From: a virus
Taxonomy: Duplodnaviria > Heunggongvirae > Uroviricota > Caudoviricetes
DNA: 10,218 nt
IMG/VR virus record: IMGVR_UViG_2548876953_000015
Reading direction: 5' to 3' (one strand)
The notes below the pieces were generated by a model. That model was not told the origin of the DNA and searched no databases. It saw nothing but the letters and a program-made list of their open reading frames with translations. A program made the position numbers and the translations under genes. Positions 1-7,630 of the stretch are shown in pieces; position 1 is the stretch's first letter, and every line of letters starts with the position of its first letter.

Positions 1-622
1 TTGTCTGGGGACATTTTAGAATGGTTCAAAGGGGACATTACAGCTTGGTGTTAACAATAGCCTGCTTCTCCTTGCCTTTCGGCACGTAAGAGGCTAACCT
101 ACATATGTCTAGCATGAAATTGGCCTCAGATTAATGTTAAGCGTCTTGCAGGACGCGTAATGTTAACTGGGGCTTTTCTCTATCTGCCGTTGGTGTTCAT
201 GCCCGAGGCAGATAGCCTCAAGCACCCGCAGCCATTCTACTTAACTACCGTTACCTCGCCAATGTGAAATCAGTCAGAAAGGCGATCCATAAGAACAATA
301 GCAAGACAATAAATCGCCATTACAGCCGTAATAGCCAGCGCACATTTGAGAACCAGCACCACAACCTCCTGTATTGGACGTAGACCAGTCCTGATGAATA
401 TGAGGCTGTCTCGTCAGTGATTCAATACAACTATTGGGTATAGTTTCTCTGATTTTTTCTGTGGAAATGGGGCACAACCACTAGTCACCACCAGCACTTC
501 TTTTAATACGCAAAGTCCGACACAAGCTAACCTTCTAGTCCGCTTTGAGCGAAAAACAGCCATAATTTAGTGCCACGTATATAATGATAGAGCTATTCAA
601 GCTAGCAATTCACATGTAAAAA

Positions 623-732: not shown

Positions 733-2520
733 ATGGACGATATTAATATCAGCCTCGACGAACTTAACACTATTGATTTATCCCCCTTAATCCAGAGTAA
801 GCTGCCAGTTACCTGCTTTGATATCACAAAGTATCTTTCTAGCCTAGGTGATGGAAGAGCGGAGATAAGACTGCTAACCCATATTTGCGGTTTTCACTTT
901 CGTCCCGAAAATCCACAGGTACCATTTGGTCCGTGCTTTCAAAGCAGCCAAGGTAGATCTGCAATTCCGGATGACATTAACGGGTTGTCGCTGGAGGTAC
1001 TTTCTCAATTTTGCCCGACGATAGAGCTACCCGAACTTCAAGCTCGTATTGCTGATACACTTTGGGTTCGTAAAATTGGTGGAATCCGTTTTCCTTTGCT
1101 GGCAGTCCGTGCTTATTATGCGTCCAGTATAGCTATTATGACATCGCAAGGGACGTGGGTTAGTGCTTTAGAACGCCTAGAGCGTGCGCTTAGGCTGTGT
1201 TGTTTTTTTCGAAAGCATACTGATTTCAGGGATGAATTTGATCAGCTTTCGGCACATCTACTAGCAGAGTATGAACGTACCAGAGAACAAGGCGATTCAC
1301 CTTATCCGCTGCGACTCCTGCAACTCGATATCGACTGTAAAGTGAGTGAGCCATCTTTTATTGCCCAGGAACTCCTGTTTCTGACAAAAAACTATCTGGC
1401 TCAAAAATTATTTTCATTTGCCGTCGATGCCTGTAAAACCGCAATCCCGATTGCGAATAGGTGCTGTGACAGAGATACACAGTTTGAATTCTGGCGGCTT
1501 CTTGCCGATACACATCTGGAAGAGTCAAAATTCCAAGATGGCGGTATGATTTCGGCAGCCTGCATGCAGAATGCTATTGAAGCACTGGCTAATATTCCAG
1601 GAACCCGAATAGAACGTCTTGCGCTGTATGAAGAAATGCGTGATTACCAAATCGAATCCCGTCACCAGATGTCTATCCTTCAGTCTCCCCCTCAAGATAT
1701 TAGTGAGATTGTCCATCAAGCCAAGAGTCGGGTAGTCGGAAGAGATTTGTTTGATATGGTTTTCAGACTTGCGATGCTGGTCTGTCGGCCAACCAGCATT
1801 GAGAGACTTAAGGCTCAAGCAATAGAACAAAAGGCCAACAGCATAGCTTGGATGTTTGGATCAACACATATTGATCATGAGGGAATGACACTTGCTCGCA
1901 TACCCGCAGGATTGGGGATTGATGATGCAAATGGGGCAGTTATTTGGCCCATAATGATGACGAGAATGCGTATCGACCATGAGTTGGCAGTAGCTGGGCA
2001 AATTATTCCTGCTACAGATGAGATCACAATGAAATATCCAATCTCGGAGGCGTTTTTTCGCGATATGTTCATCAATCATCCCTTCATCCCGTTTGGGCAT
2101 GAAGAGTTTTTCATCAAGGGTATGGTTTGCGGTTTCAATGGAGATTTTATGACGGCATGCCACGTGTTGATTCCCCAGATCGAAAATAGTCTGAGATATG
2201 TGGCTAAAATTAAAGGTGAGGAACCATCGCAGCTTCACGGGGACGGTTCGCAAGAGCGAAATGGACTCAAGGGATTACTAGATAATCCACTGATTATTGA
2301 AGCTTTCGGCGTAGACATAATTGGCAATCTTCAGGCCTTACTGGTAGATAAAATCTATGGTGATTTACGAAATCAACTAGCTCACGGATATGTGCCTGCC
2401 GGTTACTACAATCAACCTCCCTGCATTTTTGCATGGTGGCTTGTATTGCACATTCTAATGAACCCTACGGCGAGATACTGGCAAGCCACTTATGGCCAAG
2501 AGAGTGAGGCTCAGACTTAA
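733..2520 (+). CDS. Hypothetical 595-aa protein; candidate HEPN-like nuclease or abortive-infection cargo (family not recognised)
   Basis: Seen in sequence: uninterrupted 595-codon ORF with ATG at 733 and a good RBS (aaggtga, 5-6 nt spacer). It is convergent with the neighbouring prophage operon and looks AT-richer than the dic genes by eye. Near the C-terminus is D-L-R-N-Q-L-A-H-G (R546 to H551, nt 2368..2385), which matches the R-N-x3-H form of the HEPN Rx4-6H motif. The family assignment is inference; only the ORF itself is secure. Confidence 0.85.
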   Translation: MDDINISLDELNTIDLSPLIQSKLPVTCFDITKYLSSLGDGRAEIRLLTHICGFHFRPENPQVPFGPCFQSSQGRSAIPDDINGLSLEVLSQFCPTIELPELQARIADTLWVRKIGGIRFPLLAVRAYYASSIAIMTSQGTWVSALERLERALRLCCFFRKHTDFRDEFDQLSAHLLAEYERTREQGDSPYPLRLLQLDIDCKVSEPSFIAQELLFLTKNYLAQKLFSFAVDACKTAIPIANRCCDRDTQFEFWRLLADTHLEESKFQDGGMISAACMQNAIEALANIPGTRIERLALYEEMRDYQIESRHQMSILQSPPQDISEIVHQAKSRVVGRDLFDMVFRLAMLVCRPTSIERLKAQAIEQKANSIAWMFGSTHIDHEGMTLARIPAGLGIDDANGAVIWPIMMTRMRIDHELAVAGQIIPATDEITMKYPISEAFFRDMFINHPFIPFGHEEFFIKGMVCGFNGDFMTACHVLIPQIENSLRYVAKIKGEEPSQLHGDGSQERNGLKGLLDNPLIIEAFGVDIIGNLQALLVDKIYGDLRNQLAHGYVPAGYYNQPPCIFAWWLVLHILMNPTARYWQATYGQESEAQT

Positions 2521-3180: not shown

Positions 3181-4045
3181 TTATCCTCTGAAACCAGGCG
3201 GAATTTCTGTATTCGGTTCAGAAATATGATTAACACAACGCTGTACAGGTGAACGCCCCAGGCGGATGACCAGTTCGTCCCATTTTTCGCGGAGCTTTGA
3301 CGGGCTCATGATGTTTTTTACCCAGAATGGATCCCGCTGTACCCGACCAAACATTTCACAAATTTGTCTGTGGCTTCTGCCATCCAGCATCCGCATTGTG
3401 CGCACATCATTGGCCCAGACAGTCCAGTTAGGCTCTTTTGGTCGCATGATCTCGCCATCATCACTGGCGGCCTGTTCGTAGAGACCCACGATCCGCCCCC
3501 ATATCCACTGCGCACACGCCAGATCCTCCTGGCTACCCCACTGGCGTTTTTTCGCACTAAACACAACTGCGCCAGGGTGCCGGATTAAAAAATCCTGTTC
3601 AGCCGTCTGCGGGTCCGGTTGCGAAGCTTCCGGACGAAAAGTGTTTTTATTCTCTGTAGTAATCTCTGTTGTATTCTCTGTAGGATCATCGGGCCATTTT
3701 GACCCGATGACATTGGGTCGTTTTGAACCAATGGAGCGTTTCATTTTGACCTCTTCCATCGTGTCATTTTGACCTGATGGAGCGGCGCATTTTGAACCGA
3801 TGGATTCGCTCAATTTGCCATCATCTAAAAGCTCGCTCCCATAGTTAATCGTGTAGAAATTGGTCATATCGCGCTTTGATTTATTGAGCTTTTCACAACG
3901 CAAAAGCCCCAGCGTTTTCAGACTTGCAAACGCGCGCTTTAACGTTGACTCTGACCAGAATGGGAACTGTTCCAGCCATTGTTCCGTTGTGTTGTAAATC
4001 CAGCGAACACCATCACATTCCATGCCGGAATTGGTATCTCTCAAC
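3181..4045 (-). pseudogene. Replication-initiator gene (phage O-like / replisome organiser), C-terminal 285-codon fragment cut off by the IS903-type insertion
   Basis: Seen in sequence: the minus-strand frame reads ...PLRDTNSGMECDGVRW... through to the stop at 3181..3183. The track ORF 3181..4134 only runs on into the IS left end. It is frame-continuous with the N-terminal fragment at 5103..5212 once the IS and one duplication copy are removed. Confidence 0.8.
4037..4045. repeat. Left 9-bp target-site duplication TCTCTCAAC of the IS903-type insertion
   Basis: Seen in sequence: tctctcaac at 4037..4045, identical to 5103..5111. IS903-group elements make 9-bp duplications (established knowledge). 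Confidence 0.9.
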
Positions 4046-4063
4046 GGCTTTGTTGAATAAATC
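4046..4063. repeat. IS903-type left terminal inverted repeat (GGCTTTGTTGAATAAATC)
   Basis: Seen in sequence: the 18-bp end sequence at 4046..4063 is the exact reverse complement of 5085..5102. Confidence 0.9.
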
Positions 4064-4122
4064 GAACTTTTGCTGAGTTGAAGGATCAGATCACGTATCT
4101 TCCCGACAACGCAGACCGTTCC

Positions 4123-5046
4123 GTGGCAAAGCAAAAGTTCAAAATCACCAACTGGCCCACCTACAATAAAGCCCTCATCAACCGTGGCTCCATAACTTTC
4201 TGGCTGGATGATGAGGCGATTCAGGCCTGGTATGAGTCAGCAACACCTTCTTCACGAGGCAGACCTCAGCGCTATTCTGACCTTGCCATCACGACTGTGC
4301 TGGTCATTAAACGCGTATTCAGGCTGACCCTGCGCGCTGCGCAGGGCTTTATTGATTCCATTTTTTCTCTGATGAACGTTCCGCTACGCTGCCCGGATTA
4401 CAGCTGTGTCAGCAGGCGGGCAAAGTCGGTTAATGTCAGTTTCAAAACGCCCACCCGGGGTGAAATCGCACACCTGGTAATTGATTCCACCGGGCTGAAG
4501 GTCTTCGGTGAAGGCGAGTGGAAAGTCAAAAAGCATGGCCAGGAACGCCGCCGTATCTGGCGTAAGCTGCATCTCGCCGTTGACAGTAAAACACATGAAA
4601 TCATCTGCGCTGACCTGTCGCTGAACAACGTTACGGACTCAGAGGCCTTCCCCGGGTTAATCCGGCAAACCCACCGGAAAATCAGGTCAGCCGCCGCCGA
4701 TGGCGCTTACGATACCCGGCTATGTCACGATGAACTGCGGCGTAAGAAAATCAGCGCGCTTATCCCTCCCCGAAAAGGTGCGGGTTACTGGCCCGGTGAA
4801 TATGCAGACCGTAACCGTGCAGTGGCTAATCAGCGAATGACCGGGAGTAATGCGCGGTGGAAATGGACAACAGATTACAACCGTCGCTCGATAGCGGAAA
4901 CGGCGATGTACCGGGTAAAACAGCTGTTCGGGGGTTCACTGACACTGCGTGACTACGATGGTCAGGTTGCAGAGGCTATGGCCCTGGTACGAGCGCTGAA
5001 CAAAATGACGAAAGCAGGTATGCCTGAAAGCGTGCGTATTGCCTGA
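4123..5046 (+). CDS. IS903-type transposase (DDE, IS5 family), about 307 aa from a GTG start
   Basis: Seen in sequence: the frame is open from TTG at 4078 to the stop at 5046. The translation (…KFKITNWPTYNKALINRGS…RGRPQRYSDLAITTVLVIKRVFRLTLRAAQGF…) is the IS903 transposase as I recall it. GTG at 4123 gives the 307-aa length I remember for that protein; the exact start is uncertain. Confidence 0.88.
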   Translation: MAKQKFKITNWPTYNKALINRGSITFWLDDEAIQAWYESATPSSRGRPQRYSDLAITTVLVIKRVFRLTLRAAQGFIDSIFSLMNVPLRCPDYSCVSRRAKSVNVSFKTPTRGEIAHLVIDSTGLKVFGEGEWKVKKHGQERRRIWRKLHLAVDSKTHEIICADLSLNNVTDSEAFPGLIRQTHRKIRSAAADGAYDTRLCHDELRRKKISALIPPRKGAGYWPGEYADRNRAVANQRMTGSNARWKWTTDYNRRSIAETAMYRVKQLFGGSLTLRDYDGQVAEAMALVRALNKMTKAGMPESVRIA

Positions 5047-5084
5047 AAACACAACCCGCTACGGGGGAGACTTACCCGAAATCT

Positions 5085-5102
5085 GATTTATTCAACAAAG
5101 CC
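5085..5102. repeat. IS903-type right terminal inverted repeat
   Basis: Seen in sequence: gatttattcaacaaagcc, the reverse complement of the left end. Confidence 0.9.
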
Positions 5103-5111
5103 TCTCTCAAC
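5103..5111. repeat. Right 9-bp target-site duplication TCTCTCAAC
   Basis: Seen in sequence: identical to 4037..4045. Confidence 0.9.
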
Positions 5112-5212
5112 CAGTAATGCAACTGCTGCAACACAATGGCTTCATTTAAGCCAATCTTCATCGCAAGCTGTGTGTTTATAACCAGTGGGCGTTCAGCAAA
5201 AAGAAGGCTCAT
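5103..5212 (-). pseudogene. Replication-initiator gene, N-terminal fragment (ATG at 5212; alternative TTG at 5266)
   Basis: Seen in sequence: the minus-strand frame reads MSLLFAERPLVINTQLAMKIGLNEAIVLQQLHYWLR, then enters the IS and stops at 5072 after 9 IS-encoded codons. The N-terminus resembles winged-helix phage replication initiators (from memory). ATG at 5212 has a GGA-type RBS; it overlaps the upstream gene by 20 bp. Confidence 0.75.
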
Positions 5213-5714
5213 AATTCCATCCAGCTTTTTGTTGGTATTGCTGTCGATACGCAAGTTTGAAAGCAATTGCTTTTTCTATAAGTTCGTCAGTTTCACGATC
5301 CACTACGGCAGGATCAGCAAAAAGCAGTCCGGACTCCACCACATCGCCATATTCTTTGTTTAACCCGGCGATCATGTACGTGATGCTTTTTCCGTCACTA
5401 ATTTCACGATACAACCTGAAATCATTAATCCGGATAGCCTCCATAATTGCAGGCACTAGCGCCGTGAACTTTTCACGCTTATCCCTGGTGTCGATAGCCT
5501 TCCAGCGTTCGAATATCTTCACTCGATTAACGCCAAGCGCTCGCTGATCAACCGCGCCACCTTCATCTGTGACACGCTGAACATCGATGTTCGGGCGCTC
5601 TTTCAAAGCCCAGAATGCTTCAGTGATTAATATCGTCGCCTGCTCCTGTGTCATTCCTGGTCGACATATCCAGGCATCCAGAGCCTCACGAGCCTGTTCA
5701 GGAGTGATTTTCAT
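5193..5714 (-). CDS. YdaT/CII-like prophage protein, 173 aa, between cro-like and replication genes
   Basis: Seen in sequence: ORF with ATG at 5714. It sits in the cII position of a lambdoid early-right operon. A central segment (…REKFTALVPAIMEAIR…) resembles the Rac prophage YdaT as I remember it (weak, from memory). Confidence 0.7.
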   Translation of the reverse strand: MKITPEQAREALDAWICRPGMTQEQATILITEAFWALKERPNIDVQRVTDEGGAVDQRALGVNRVKIFERWKAIDTRDKREKFTALVPAIMEAIRINDFRLYREISDGKSITYMIAGLNKEYGDVVESGLLFADPAVVDRETDELIEKAIAFKLAYRQQYQQKAGWNYEPSFC

Positions 5715-5925
5715 TGTTCAACCGCCCCGCCCGCTTCGTCTTACGATATTCGTCATAAACCTTGGGATCATACAGAAGCTCCCCGCCAGATGCCTCCTGT
5801 AGACGCATCGCGCGACCTTCAGGAACCAGTATCCCCCAAGCAGCAACACTTGCCAGTCTCACTCCTGCGGCATTGGCAAGCTTTGTTTTGCTGCCAAAAA
5901 AAGTAATTGCGTCAACTTTAAGCAT
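5698..5925 (-). CDS. dicC: Cro-like regulator, DicC-like (75 aa from ATG 5925; the track ORF starts one codon earlier at TTG 5928)
   Basis: Seen in sequence: small ORF divergent from the dicA-like gene, with a strong Shine-Dalgarno (minus-strand agggggc) about 5 nt before the ATG and an operator-like palindrome just upstream. Size and position match DicC of Qin-type prophages (established knowledge). Confidence 0.8.
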   Translation of the reverse strand: MLKVDAITFFGSKTKLANAAGVRLASVAAWGILVPEGRAMRLQEASGGELLYDPKVYDEYRKTKRAGRLNNENHS

Positions 5926-5939
5926 CAAAGCCCCCTCTT

Positions 5940-5955
5940 GTTAGACTTTTCTAAC
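5940..5955. promoter_or_regulatory. Operator-like perfect palindrome GTTAGA-N4-TCTAAC in the dicC-dicA intergenic region
   Basis: Seen in sequence: gttagacttttctaac, about 15 bp upstream of the dicC start and 50 bp upstream of the dicA start. The same half-sites recur at 6451..6466. Inferred to be a DicA/DicC operator. Confidence 0.5.
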
Positions 5956-6005
5956 ATTATTGTGCGCGGGATATCTAAGTCAAGAAAAATTAGAATTACC
6001 TAACT

Positions 6006-6413
6006 ATGGATACAAGAACCCTAGGCCAGCGAGTTCTGGCGCGACGAAAAGAATTACGCTTAACACAACGAGAAGCTGCGCGCCTCGCTGGAGTTGCTCA
6101 CGTCACAATTTCACAATGGGAAAGAGACGAAACCCAGCCAGTCGGAAAACGATTGTTTGCTTTAGCGGATGCTCTGAAGTGCTCACCTACATGGCTAATG
6201 TTTGGTGACGAAGACAAGGCACCAGTGCCTGCACAAGAACTTCATGTGGAAACAGAGCTAACTCCCAACCACAAAGAATTGATCGAATTATTCGATGCTC
6301 TTCCATCTTCCGAGCAGGAAGCCTTGCTGTCTGAAATGCGCGCAAGAGTAGAAAACTTCAACAAACTCTTCGAAGAAATGCTTAAAGCGCGTAAAAATAA
6401 ATCAATAAAATAA
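6006..6413 (+). CDS. dicA: Prophage repressor DicA (HTH_XRE family, 135 aa)
   Basis: Seen in sequence: 135-aa ORF with an N-terminal helix-turn-helix (…LRLTQREAARLAGVAHVTISQWERDETQP…). The C-terminus …MRARVENFNKLFEEMLKARK… closely resembles K-12 DicA as I recall it, and the length is the same (135 aa). Confidence 0.88.
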   Translation: MDTRTLGQRVLARRKELRLTQREAARLAGVAHVTISQWERDETQPVGKRLFALADALKCSPTWLMFGDEDKAPVPAQELHVETELTPNHKELIELFDALPSSEQEALLSEMRARVENFNKLFEEMLKARKNKSIK

Positions 6414-6450
6414 CATTCTTTTCAAGTGATTAGTTGCGCCCACTCTTTTT

Positions 6451-6466
6451 GTTAGACCAATCTAAC
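6451..6466. promoter_or_regulatory. Second GTTAGA-N4-TCTAAC palindrome, downstream of dicA and upstream of ydfA (candidate operator of the dicB operon promoter)
   Basis: Seen in sequence: gttagaccaatctaac has the same half-sites as 5940..5955. DicA is known to repress the dicB operon (established knowledge); the site assignment is inference. Confidence 0.45.
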
Positions 6467-6485
6467 AAAAACACTTGCCTATCAT

Positions 6486-6501
6486 GTTAGGTTATTCTAA
6501 A
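6486..6501. promoter_or_regulatory. Third, degenerate copy of the palindrome (GTTAGG-N4-TCTAAA)
   Basis: Seen in sequence: gttaggttattctaaa, one mismatch per half-site, 20 bp to the right of the second copy. Confidence 0.3.
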
Positions 6502-6580
6502 TTACTTTCCATCAAGACACCGCACGGTGTTCTCAGCAAACAGTTCCGCTACCCCGGCGTTAAGGGGAAATGAGGTCAGC

Positions 6581-6736
6581 ATGGATACTATCGATCTTGG
6601 CAACAGCGAATCTCTGGTATGTGGCATGTTCCCCAACCAGGACGGCACGTTCACCGCGATGACGTATACCAAAAGCAAAACGTTTAAAACCGAAAATGGT
6701 GCCCGTCGCTGGCTGGAAAGAAACTCAGGTGAGTGA
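6581..6736 (+). CDS. ydfA: YdfA-like small prophage protein (51 aa)
   Basis: Seen in sequence: ATG at 6581 with Shine-Dalgarno gaggt 4 nt upstream; translation MDTIDLGNSESLVCGMFPNQDGTFTAMTYTKSKTFKTENGARRWLERNSGE. It matches Qin-prophage YdfA as I recall it. The track ORF 6527..6736 is an upstream extension without an RBS. Confidence 0.8.
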   Translation: MDTIDLGNSESLVCGMFPNQDGTFTAMTYTKSKTFKTENGARRWLERNSGE

Positions 6737-6737
6737 T

Positions 6738-7313
6738 ATGGATTTCGACACAATCATGGAAAAGGCTTACGAAGAATACTTCGAAGGCCTTGCCGAAGGC
6801 GAAGAAGCTCTCAGCTTCAGTGAGTTTAAACAGGCACTCAGAATAAGAATGTGCTCTCACAATGACGCGGAGCACAAATATGAGAAGCAAAATCAGACCG
6901 CAGAAAATTTTGTTCTGGAACCCGGAGAAACGCTTTTCAAAATTCCCGTTACGTGCCCCATTTGCGGTTTTACATCAGAAGAACTTGACGACTCCTGTAA
7001 CAATCAGGAAACAACCAAGTATGTCGAAGATGATACCGAGTGCGCACGAAGAACGATTATATCCACGAGTCCAAACTCCAGGGCCAATAAATCTCACTTT
7101 GAGAGGGTGATTAATCCACTCCCCCAAACCAATAAAAAAGATGCCGGAGGACAAAAAACCCAATGGAACAACGGGATATCTGTCAAAAAAAGACGTTCCA
7201 TTAAAGACAAACAACGCAGCGCCAACAACTGTAAGCGCTTTATACCAGTAATCAATTTTCATGTTCTTAAGCGGATTTATTGGTGGTTGCGACATTGCTT
7301 AATGAATCCTTAA
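6738..7313 (+). CDS. ydfB-position ORF, open for 191 codons in this window (acidic N-terminus, CPICGF motif); 3' extent uncertain
   Basis: Seen in sequence: ATG at 6738 lies 1 nt after the ydfA stop, with Shine-Dalgarno aggtga upstream (translational coupling). The frame stays open to 7313. The distal half is K/N/R-rich with rare codons (aga, agg, ata, cga) and may not all be coding. Confidence 0.45.
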   Translation: MDFDTIMEKAYEEYFEGLAEGEEALSFSEFKQALRIRMCSHNDAEHKYEKQNQTAENFVLEPGETLFKIPVTCPICGFTSEELDDSCNNQETTKYVEDDTECARRTIISTSPNSRANKSHFERVINPLPQTNKKDAGGQKTQWNNGISVKKRRSIKDKQRSANNCKRFIPVINFHVLKRIYWWLRHCLMNP

Positions 7314-7572: not shown

Positions 7573-7630
7573 TTTCTGGTGACGTTTGGCGGTATCAGTT
7601 TTACTCCGTGACTGCTCTGCCGCCGTTTTT
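7573..7630 (+). ncRNA. dicF: DicF small RNA (Hfq-dependent, ftsZ-targeting)
   Basis: Seen in sequence: tttctggtgacgtttggcggtatcagttttactccgtgactgctctgccgccgttttt matches the DicF sequence as I remember it almost base for base. It ends in a hairpin plus U-tract and sits between the ydfB/C position and dicB as in Qin. The 5' end is approximate (+/- 2 nt). Confidence 0.8.
7588..7630 (+). terminator. Intrinsic terminator forming the DicF 3' end (ggcgg…ccgcc stem followed by TTTTT)
   Basis: Seen in sequence: GC stem arms at 7588..7592 and 7620..7624, U-tract at 7626..7630. Confidence 0.55.

Follow-up and report, generated by a model that had tools for sequence, protein, structure and literature searches.

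Four conserved dyads flanking dicA in a Qin-like prophage are predicted operators of a DicA-type repressor

The four short dyads that flank the dicA-like gene in the window (the whole 10,218-nt stretch of DNA analysed here) very probably constitute the operators for dimers of a DicA-type repressor, in a layout of the P22 immC type, and the Cro-like DicC protein probably shares them. This reading, drawn from sequence comparison, is built on the sites themselves, their non-random occurrence, their positions relative to the promoters, their conservation across related loci and the parallel changes in the DNA-binding helices of the repressors encoded beside them. What emerges is a new allele of a known switch system and not a new mechanism, the layout of Escherichia coli K-12 having been described in the 1980s.

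The window is best described as the immunity region of a Qin-like lambdoid prophage, allelic and with a divergent dicA. The original prediction had named dicC-like, dicA, ydfA, dicF and dicB genes here, assignments that are borne out by Pfam, Rfam and identity to the K-12 counterparts:

5193-5714, minus strand: YdaT-family gene, from the domain search
5698-5925, minus strand: dicC-like gene (Cro analogue), 75 aa; Pfam P22_Cro 2.6e-11; 85% identical to K-12 DicC
6006-6413, plus strand: dicA-like repressor gene, 135 aa; Pfam HTH_3 1.5e-14; 56% identical to K-12 DicA over its full length
6581-6736, plus strand: ydfA, the first gene of the operon; Pfam DUF1391 4.8e-27
7574-7625, plus strand: DicF small RNA; Rfam RF00039, 72.5 bits
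7800-7988, plus strand: dicB, cell-division inhibitor; Pfam DicB 1.9e-40

The dicC-like and dicA-like genes are divergent and separated by an 80-bp spacer, and no Shine-Dalgarno sequence was seen for the dicA-like gene. Its product combines an N-terminal HTH_3 domain, in the absence of a peptidase domain (Pfam returned HTH families only), with a C-terminal motif, EMRARVxNFNKLFEE, that is conserved in K-12 DicA; full-length similarity and the same genomic neighbours place it in the DicA (Qin) orthologue group. Many E. coli chromosomes carry prophages that match the region at 99.8-99.9% identity. In E. coli DEC9B the related element ends with an integrase adjoining rspB, and 566 of 5,426 complete E. 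coli genomes (about 10%) contain 80% or more of the 1,071-bp core.

Perfect copies of GTTAGA-N4-TCTAAC occur only twice in the window on either strand, and these, at 5940-5955 and 6451-6466, together with a degenerate copy at 6486-6501, are exactly where and what the original prediction had read. Its count of three was nevertheless incomplete, as there are four sites with up to two mismatches. The additional one, at 5989-6004, ends one base ahead of the dicA ATG (6006) and turns the proposed one-plus-two arrangement around dicA into two plus two, the pair between dicA and ydfA being retained:

5940-5955: O1, strong predicted operator; GTTAGACTTTTCTAAC, perfect match; homologue of K-12 Oc
5989-6004: O2, weak site; ATTAGAATTACCTAAC, two mismatches; homologue of K-12 Oa
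6451-6466: O3, strong predicted operator; GTTAGACCAATCTAAC, perfect match; core of the palindrome at 6446-6471
6486-6501: O4, weaker predicted operator; GTTAGGTTATTCTAAA, two mismatches to GTTAGA-N4-TCTAAC

Against a chance baseline of 200 dinucleotide-preserving shuffles, the two perfect dyads compare with an expectation of zero (0/200 shuffles gave any), and the four matches at up to two mismatches with 0.23 expected in the window, a count that no shuffle attained. Relaxing the threshold to three mismatches adds just two more matches in the window, both outside the two spacers and at chance level. All four sites fall within the dicC-dicA spacer and the 167-bp dicA-ydfA spacer, that is, within 247 of the 10,218 nt. 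The symmetry of the strong sites extends beyond the 16-mer: O1 lies in a longer dyad at 5938-5957 (TTGTTAGA...TCTAACA), and O3 is the core of a perfect 11+4+11 palindrome of 26 bp at 6446-6471 (TTTTTGTTAGA-CCAA-TCTAACAAAAA). The two weak sites, O2 and O4, are 89% reverse-complementary to each other over 18 nt. Together, the four sites yield the consensus (TT)GTTAG(A/G)-N4-(T/C)CTAAC(AA). They are spaced 49 bp apart in the dicC/dicA pair and 35 bp apart in the dicA-ydfA pair; as these distances correspond to non-integral numbers of helical turns, adjacent cooperativity in the style of lambda is not evident. A third, Om-like site was sought in both spacers at up to three mismatches and none was found. 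The spacers also contain orphan half-site motifs, viz., CTAA at 5975 and TTAG at 6430.

The dyads occupy specific positions relative to the promoters of the two early transcription units:

5955-5983, minus strand: dicC promoter; -35 TTGACT at 5983-5978, -10 AATAAT at 5961-5956; scan score 10/12
6475-6503, plus strand: inferred dicB-operon promoter (dicBp); -35 TTGCCT at 6475-6480, 17-bp spacer, -10 TAAATT at 6498-6503

The dicC promoter was the sole promoter called by a scan of 5650-6800, and 10 lineages share an unchanged -35 (plus-strand AGTCAA). An alternative -10, ATAATG at 5960-5955, would leave a 17-bp spacer. O1 starts immediately 3' of the dicC -10, abutting it, and spans the expected dicC start (about 5948-5950). 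This matches K-12, where the dicC promoter was mapped by 5'RACE and Oc overlaps its -10 (PMC3441716). The dicBp candidate scores 8/12, under the threshold of the promoter scan; the dicA-ydfA spacer, which reads cacTTGCCTatcatGTTAGGTTATTCTAAATTac, aligns base for base with its K-12 equivalent, cacTTGACCgatatGTTAGTCATGGCTAATCTtg, such that TTGCCT-17-TAAATT of the window pairs with TTGACC-17-TAATCT of K-12. The start of the dicB-operon transcript would be expected near 6510-6511, within a conserved CATCAA. O3 sits just upstream of the dicBp -35, and O4 lies between the -35 and the -10, its right half overlapping the latter. Finally, O2 contains a probable dicA -10, TAGAAT at 5991-5996, which ends 9 nt ahead of the ATG. 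A leaderless dicA mRNA, starting at about 6003-6006, is plausible here by analogy with the cI mRNA of lambda, which is leaderless when made from PRM.

This placement is conserved well beyond the allele in the window. The comparison took in 21 DicA loci (one genome per species), nine loci taken from records of phages and E. coli, and a further ~36 loci, among the matches listed, in viral contigs with the motif beside a DicA homologue. In every locus of the GTTAG type there is a site at -66/-67 and another at -17 from the dicA ATG, with two more sites about 35 bp apart 3' of the dicA stop codon. More generally, the site positions are kept in more than 40 related loci: at the start of the dicC promoter, at the dicA start, and on both sides of the dicBp -35 and over its -10. 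When 10-11 lineages sharing 48-100% protein identity were aligned for footprinting, conservation coincided exactly with the half-sites TGTTAG/CTAAC, the dicC -35, the stretch TTTAGAAT..CTAACTATG, and the TTG and -10 (TAnnnT) of dicBp; the last two are conserved in 11 lineages and O2 is conserved at -17 in 10. Near-identical alleles reveal the same constraint at finer grain, with the central four bases varying in O1 (CTTT, TATT, TTTT) between fixed GTTAGA and CTAAC, and in O3 (CCAA, TCAA, CTAA) between fixed half-sites. In O4 the left half-site follows the immunity type (GTTAG, CTTAG, ATGAG), and the right half is kept constant by the TAnnnT pattern of the -10.

A second line of evidence comes from the co-variation of the dyads with the predicted DNA-binding helices of the adjacent repressors. 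There are at least six immunity types, each with its own dyad at the same positions, of which the following illustrate the pairing of DicA helix and dyad:

LTQR...VAHVTISQWE with GTTAGA-N4-TCTAAC: the window allele, Citrobacter (74% identity), locus L074 (71%) and a viral lineage with a 128-aa protein (52-56%)
LSQAALGK...VAHVTISQWE with CTTAG(A/G)TTTTCCTAAG (CTTAG(A/G)-N4-CCTAAG): PPompW/O157 prophages and Enterobacter
VSGSSISLWE with ATTGAGTTTTCTCAAT (ATTGAG-N4-CTCAAT): mEp460 and HannyBb
KSSVSVFKWE with TAAC-N4-GTTA: phiES15 and relatives

The first combination is thus maintained in four lineages spanning 52-100% identity, and the helix-turn-helix region of DicC changes in step with the DicA helices and the dyad. 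When the O1 of each locus was matched to dicA-ydfA spacers, it scored 10.0/12 against its own or same-group spacers and 7.9/12 against those of other groups, and 0 of 10,000 permutations equalled the observed value. The automatic choice of O1 took a wrong 16-mer in five loci (L010, L015, L018, L019 and L020), the only effect of which is a weaker signal. This cognate pattern reads as the signature of repressor-specific operators. The original prediction had set conservation in other dicA-carrying prophages as a point on which it could fail; the retention of positions in more than 40 loci, along with half-sites that switch with the helix-turn-helix type of DicA and DicC, answers that question in its favour.

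Among the closest known relatives of this switch is that of the Qin prophage of K-12. There, according to later citations (PMC3441716, PMC10448788), Bejar et al. (1988) used the sequence to propose three operators at dicC/dicA, named Oc, Om and Oa, along with others at dicBp. The Oc site (TTGTTAGTCATAACTAACAA) binds DicA, as established by an in vivo repression assay, point mutations that escape titration and EMSA with crude extract (PMC3441716), and the change of its CTAAC to CTCAC abolishes this binding (PMC3441716). At Oc, DicA represses dicC and enables dicA, whereas Om and Oa, each assayed alone in vivo, show no DicA binding (PMC3441716). DicA also represses dicBp by about 100-fold or more, and deletion of dicA derepresses this promoter (PMC10448788); a 2020 survey lists the location of DicA binding at dicB as unknown or low-evidence (PMC7567609). 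Our literature search for DicA with dicB and EMSA returned no binding study beyond Yun 2012; there was no study of the window dicA allele in the literature searched and nothing on operators in a paper on O157:H7 DicC.

The window shares with K-12 Qin the gene order ydaT/ydfX, dicC, dicA, ydfA, DicF and dicB, the site positions (67 and 17 nt ahead of the dicA ATG, and to either side of the dicBp -35), and the GTTAG...CTAAC core. The geometry offered by the original prediction as a direct reading of the DNA is correct here but not new, the same layout having been predicted for Qin in 1988. The two systems differ in that the DicA proteins are just 56% identical, the 16-mer has A/T at positions 6 and 11 in the window but T/A in K-12 Oc (GTTAGT...ACTAAC), and the more upstream of the dicBp sites is perfectly palindromic in the window and degenerate in K-12 (GTTAGCTATAGCATAC). 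Further, two sites are detectable per region in the window, compared with the three proposed for K-12.

The window also resembles P22 immC. Residues 1-71 of the window DicA match the N-terminal domain of the P22 c2 repressor (PDB 1adr, 2r1j) at E 1e-18, DicC belongs to the P22_Cro family, and in both systems the repressor and cro genes are divergent and a second operator cluster lies at the leftward early promoter. The P22 repressor recognizes rotationally symmetric sites of 18 bp, contacting positions 2-7 and 12-17 and none at 8-11 (PMC4267663). That 6-4-6 succession of contacted, uncontacted and contacted bases is the layout of xGTTAGA-NNNN-TCTAACx in the window. In contrast, the window DicA has 135 aa and lacks the RecA-cleavable C-terminal peptidase domain (LexA/S24 type, for self-cleavage and oligomerization), compared to the 216 aa of c2, and is thus c2-like at the DNA but a short DicA-type repressor. 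The half-site also differs, being GTTAGA in the window and of the TTAAG type in P22, as does the clustering, with two sites 35-49 bp apart per cluster in the former and three adjacent sites in the latter. With lambda CI/Cro (OR1-3 and OL1-3) the system shares a logic, namely one repressor acting through one family of dyads to turn off the early promoters on the rightward (cro) and leftward sides and to regulate its own gene, with a weak site over the repressor's own promoter; however, the DNA-binding specificity is unrelated, and neither adjacent cooperative pairs nor looping is evident in the window. In a different direction, GfoR and GfhR of the Gifsy prophages are likewise short HTH repressors without a self-cleavage domain, which are inactivated by antirepressors. 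K-12 DicA is relieved by Rem, an antirepressor of Qin (PMC10448788), and no rem-like gene was found within the window.

These comparisons suggest how the switch would operate. The repressor bound at O1 would shut off dicC, ydaT and the replication genes and, by analogy with K-12, would also stimulate transcription of dicA. O2, which covers the probable dicA -10 and the virtually leaderless start of that gene, would be OR3-like, serving negative autoregulation or as a DicC site. With O3 and O4 occupied, RNA polymerase would be excluded and ydfA-dicF-dicB-ydfD would remain silent. For the window allele we infer the binding itself, the preference of each protein for particular sites, the activation of dicA and the leaderless dicA mRNA. 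The central proposal of the original prediction, a single DicA-type repressor controlling its own switch and the dicB-operon promoter, is supported by the promoter placement, its recurrence in over 40 loci and the K-12 Oc precedent.

We are less confident that the two weak sites act as operators than that the perfect ones do, and whether O2 is a genuine operator is the main real uncertainty: it may be mostly the dicA -10 and start, a site preferred by DicC, or a weak OR3-like site. The view that restricts the operators to O1 and O3, possibly with O4, and takes O2 as an A/T-rich, TTAG/CTAA-like look-alike created by the -10 (TAGAAT) and the leaderless start of dicA, carries a sizeable minority of the probability. 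It accounts for the want of a Shine-Dalgarno sequence, for the near constancy of O2 in immunity groups with different O1, and for its spacer bases AT, which complete TAGAAT and are conserved in 10/10 lineages while the spacers of O1 and O3 vary; it also agrees with the K-12 homologue of O2, Oa, for which no in vivo DicA binding was found (PMC3441716). Yet O2 presents both half-sites, TTAGA and CTAAC, at the exact 6-4-6 spacing, and in the ATTGAG group it drifts toward the group consensus (ATTAAG...CTAAAT). Moreover, lambdoid switches typically include a weak, OR3-like site that depends on cooperativity or is favoured by Cro, and a role as operator and a role as -10 and start are not mutually exclusive. 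On a more speculative reading, dicA is expressed from a leaderless mRNA with its -10 inside O2, which would make O2 an autoregulatory site of the lambda OR3/PRM kind.

The remaining alternatives bear on the dyads as a set or on O3. That they are mainly targets of DicC rather than of DicA is unlikely: the DicC helix-turn-helix does co-vary with the operator type, and DicC, listed in annotation as a dicB regulator, represses dicA when overexpressed (PMC10448788), but binding of K-12 DicA to Oc was demonstrated genetically and by crude-extract EMSA (PMC3441716) and it is the deletion of dicA that derepresses dicBp (PMC10448788). As lambdoid repressors and Cro proteins share operators, DicC binding would be an addition to DicA binding and not an alternative to it. 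The palindrome at 6446-6471 could instead be an RNA hairpin that terminates or stabilizes the dicA transcript, given that it lies 33 nt 3' of the dicA stop and can fold into a hairpin with 11 bp at -9.3 kcal/mol (z = -5.2). We regard this as very improbable, since the sequence of the stem, and not just its pairing, is conserved and equals that of the promoter-located O1, and its arms change with the repressor type; as a terminator it was rejected outright in view of this conservation, the lack of a U-tract 3' on either strand and a terminator scan that made no call. Least credible of all is that A/T-rich intergenic DNA produced the repeats by chance. Isolated matches do occur: searching viral contigs for TGTTAGA-N4-TCTAACA, with its 14 specified bases, found at least 120 stretches. 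Among the matches listed, about 70% lack a nearby DicA homologue and represent chance or unrelated elements (e.g., L042); the remaining matches listed belong to the same allele, with two matches 511 bp apart, or to DicA-like lineages. In the window, however, the observed counts of two and four against expectations of 0 and 0.23, the conserved positions and the co-variation of the sequence with the repressor effectively refute this explanation.

The reading of the four dyads as operators of a DicA-type repressor leaves the understanding of how such switches work unchanged. What it offers is a base-level operator map, in a two-plus-two arrangement, for the dicA allele of about a tenth of complete E. 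coli genomes. The comparative evidence indicates where DicA should bind at the dicB promoter, a location that in K-12 had previously been just predicted, and the map can be put to use in annotation and in the design of reporter and derepression experiments on dicB and DicF. A more tentative implication, which we consider doubtful, concerns specificity. Four lineages at 52-100% identity keep both helix 3 (VAHVTISQWE) and the exact dyad, and K-12 keeps the GTTAG core; on these grounds, distant DicA alleles may have retained their operator specificity, and Qin-like prophages that seem hetero-immune may cross-repress each other's dicC and dicB promoters. If so, the DicA of one element would silence the toxic dicB operon of another residing in the same cell.

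Beyond the immediate relatives of the window, the same dyad (GTTAGA-N4-TCTAAC) recurs in a lineage of 128-aa DicA-like proteins, represented by the viral-contig loci L043, L044 and L046 and, among the matches listed, about 14 more viral loci. These proteins share only 52-56% identity with the window protein, a 135-aa DicA-like HTH_3 repressor, yet their helix 3 is identical (VAHVTISQWE). Their operator at -67 relative to the dicA ATG, TGTTAGATTT(T/G)TCTAACA, is likewise identical to that of the window, and they also possess a -17 site and two sites at their own leftward promoter. We additionally recovered an A/T-rich viral contig, L042 (IMGVR_UViG_3300012020_000462), on which ATGTTAGAGTAGTCTAACAA occurs three times exactly and twice as a near match, at intervals of about 23 bp (2139-2226); no DicA homologue was found on this contig. 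These repeats appear to belong to an unrelated element in which this dyad serves for tandem operators or iterons.

In the ydfA-dicB operon, the leader (6511-6580) is retained even between hetero-immune loci, i.e., related prophage loci with a different DicA helix-turn-helix and dyad type. It comprises, in order, CATCAA, the hairpin CACCGCACGGTG, CTCAGCAAA, GTTCCGCT and a second hairpin, CCCCGGCGTTAAGGGG, which shows compensatory changes in two of its four predicted pairs. Other lineages display GTTCTGAC and CCCCGGAAAGACGGG at this position. The leader had no Rfam match at the gathering score; it may represent an RNA element, whether nut-like or of another kind.

The following features lie around this region:

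56-227, minus strand: sok antitoxin RNA (Rfam RF01794, 106.9 bits)
733-2520, plus strand: gene for a 595-aa DUF4209-domain protein (annotation from E. coli DEC9B, which has a related prophage)
3181-4134 and 5072-5266, minus strand: replication O-like gene in two pieces
4078-5046: 322-aa transposase ORF
6696-7313, plus strand: 205-aa ORF downstream of ydfA

This last ORF spans the place that in K-12 is occupied by the separate small genes ydfB and ydfC. An annotated 618-nt CDS of equal length is seen at the corresponding place in HannyBb, a phage with another DicA immunity type. In DEC9B, ydfB is annotated as incomplete.

The O-like gene is interrupted by a 1,057-bp insertion relative to DEC9B (4046-5102), which encloses the transposase ORF and is flanked on both sides by a 9-bp target duplication. 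Its size and the length of the duplication suggest an IS903/IS102-like element of the IS5 family.

The sok match identifies the left end of the window as the prophage hokD/sok module. Situated between this module and the prophage replication genes, the DUF4209 gene is possibly accessory cargo of the prophage.
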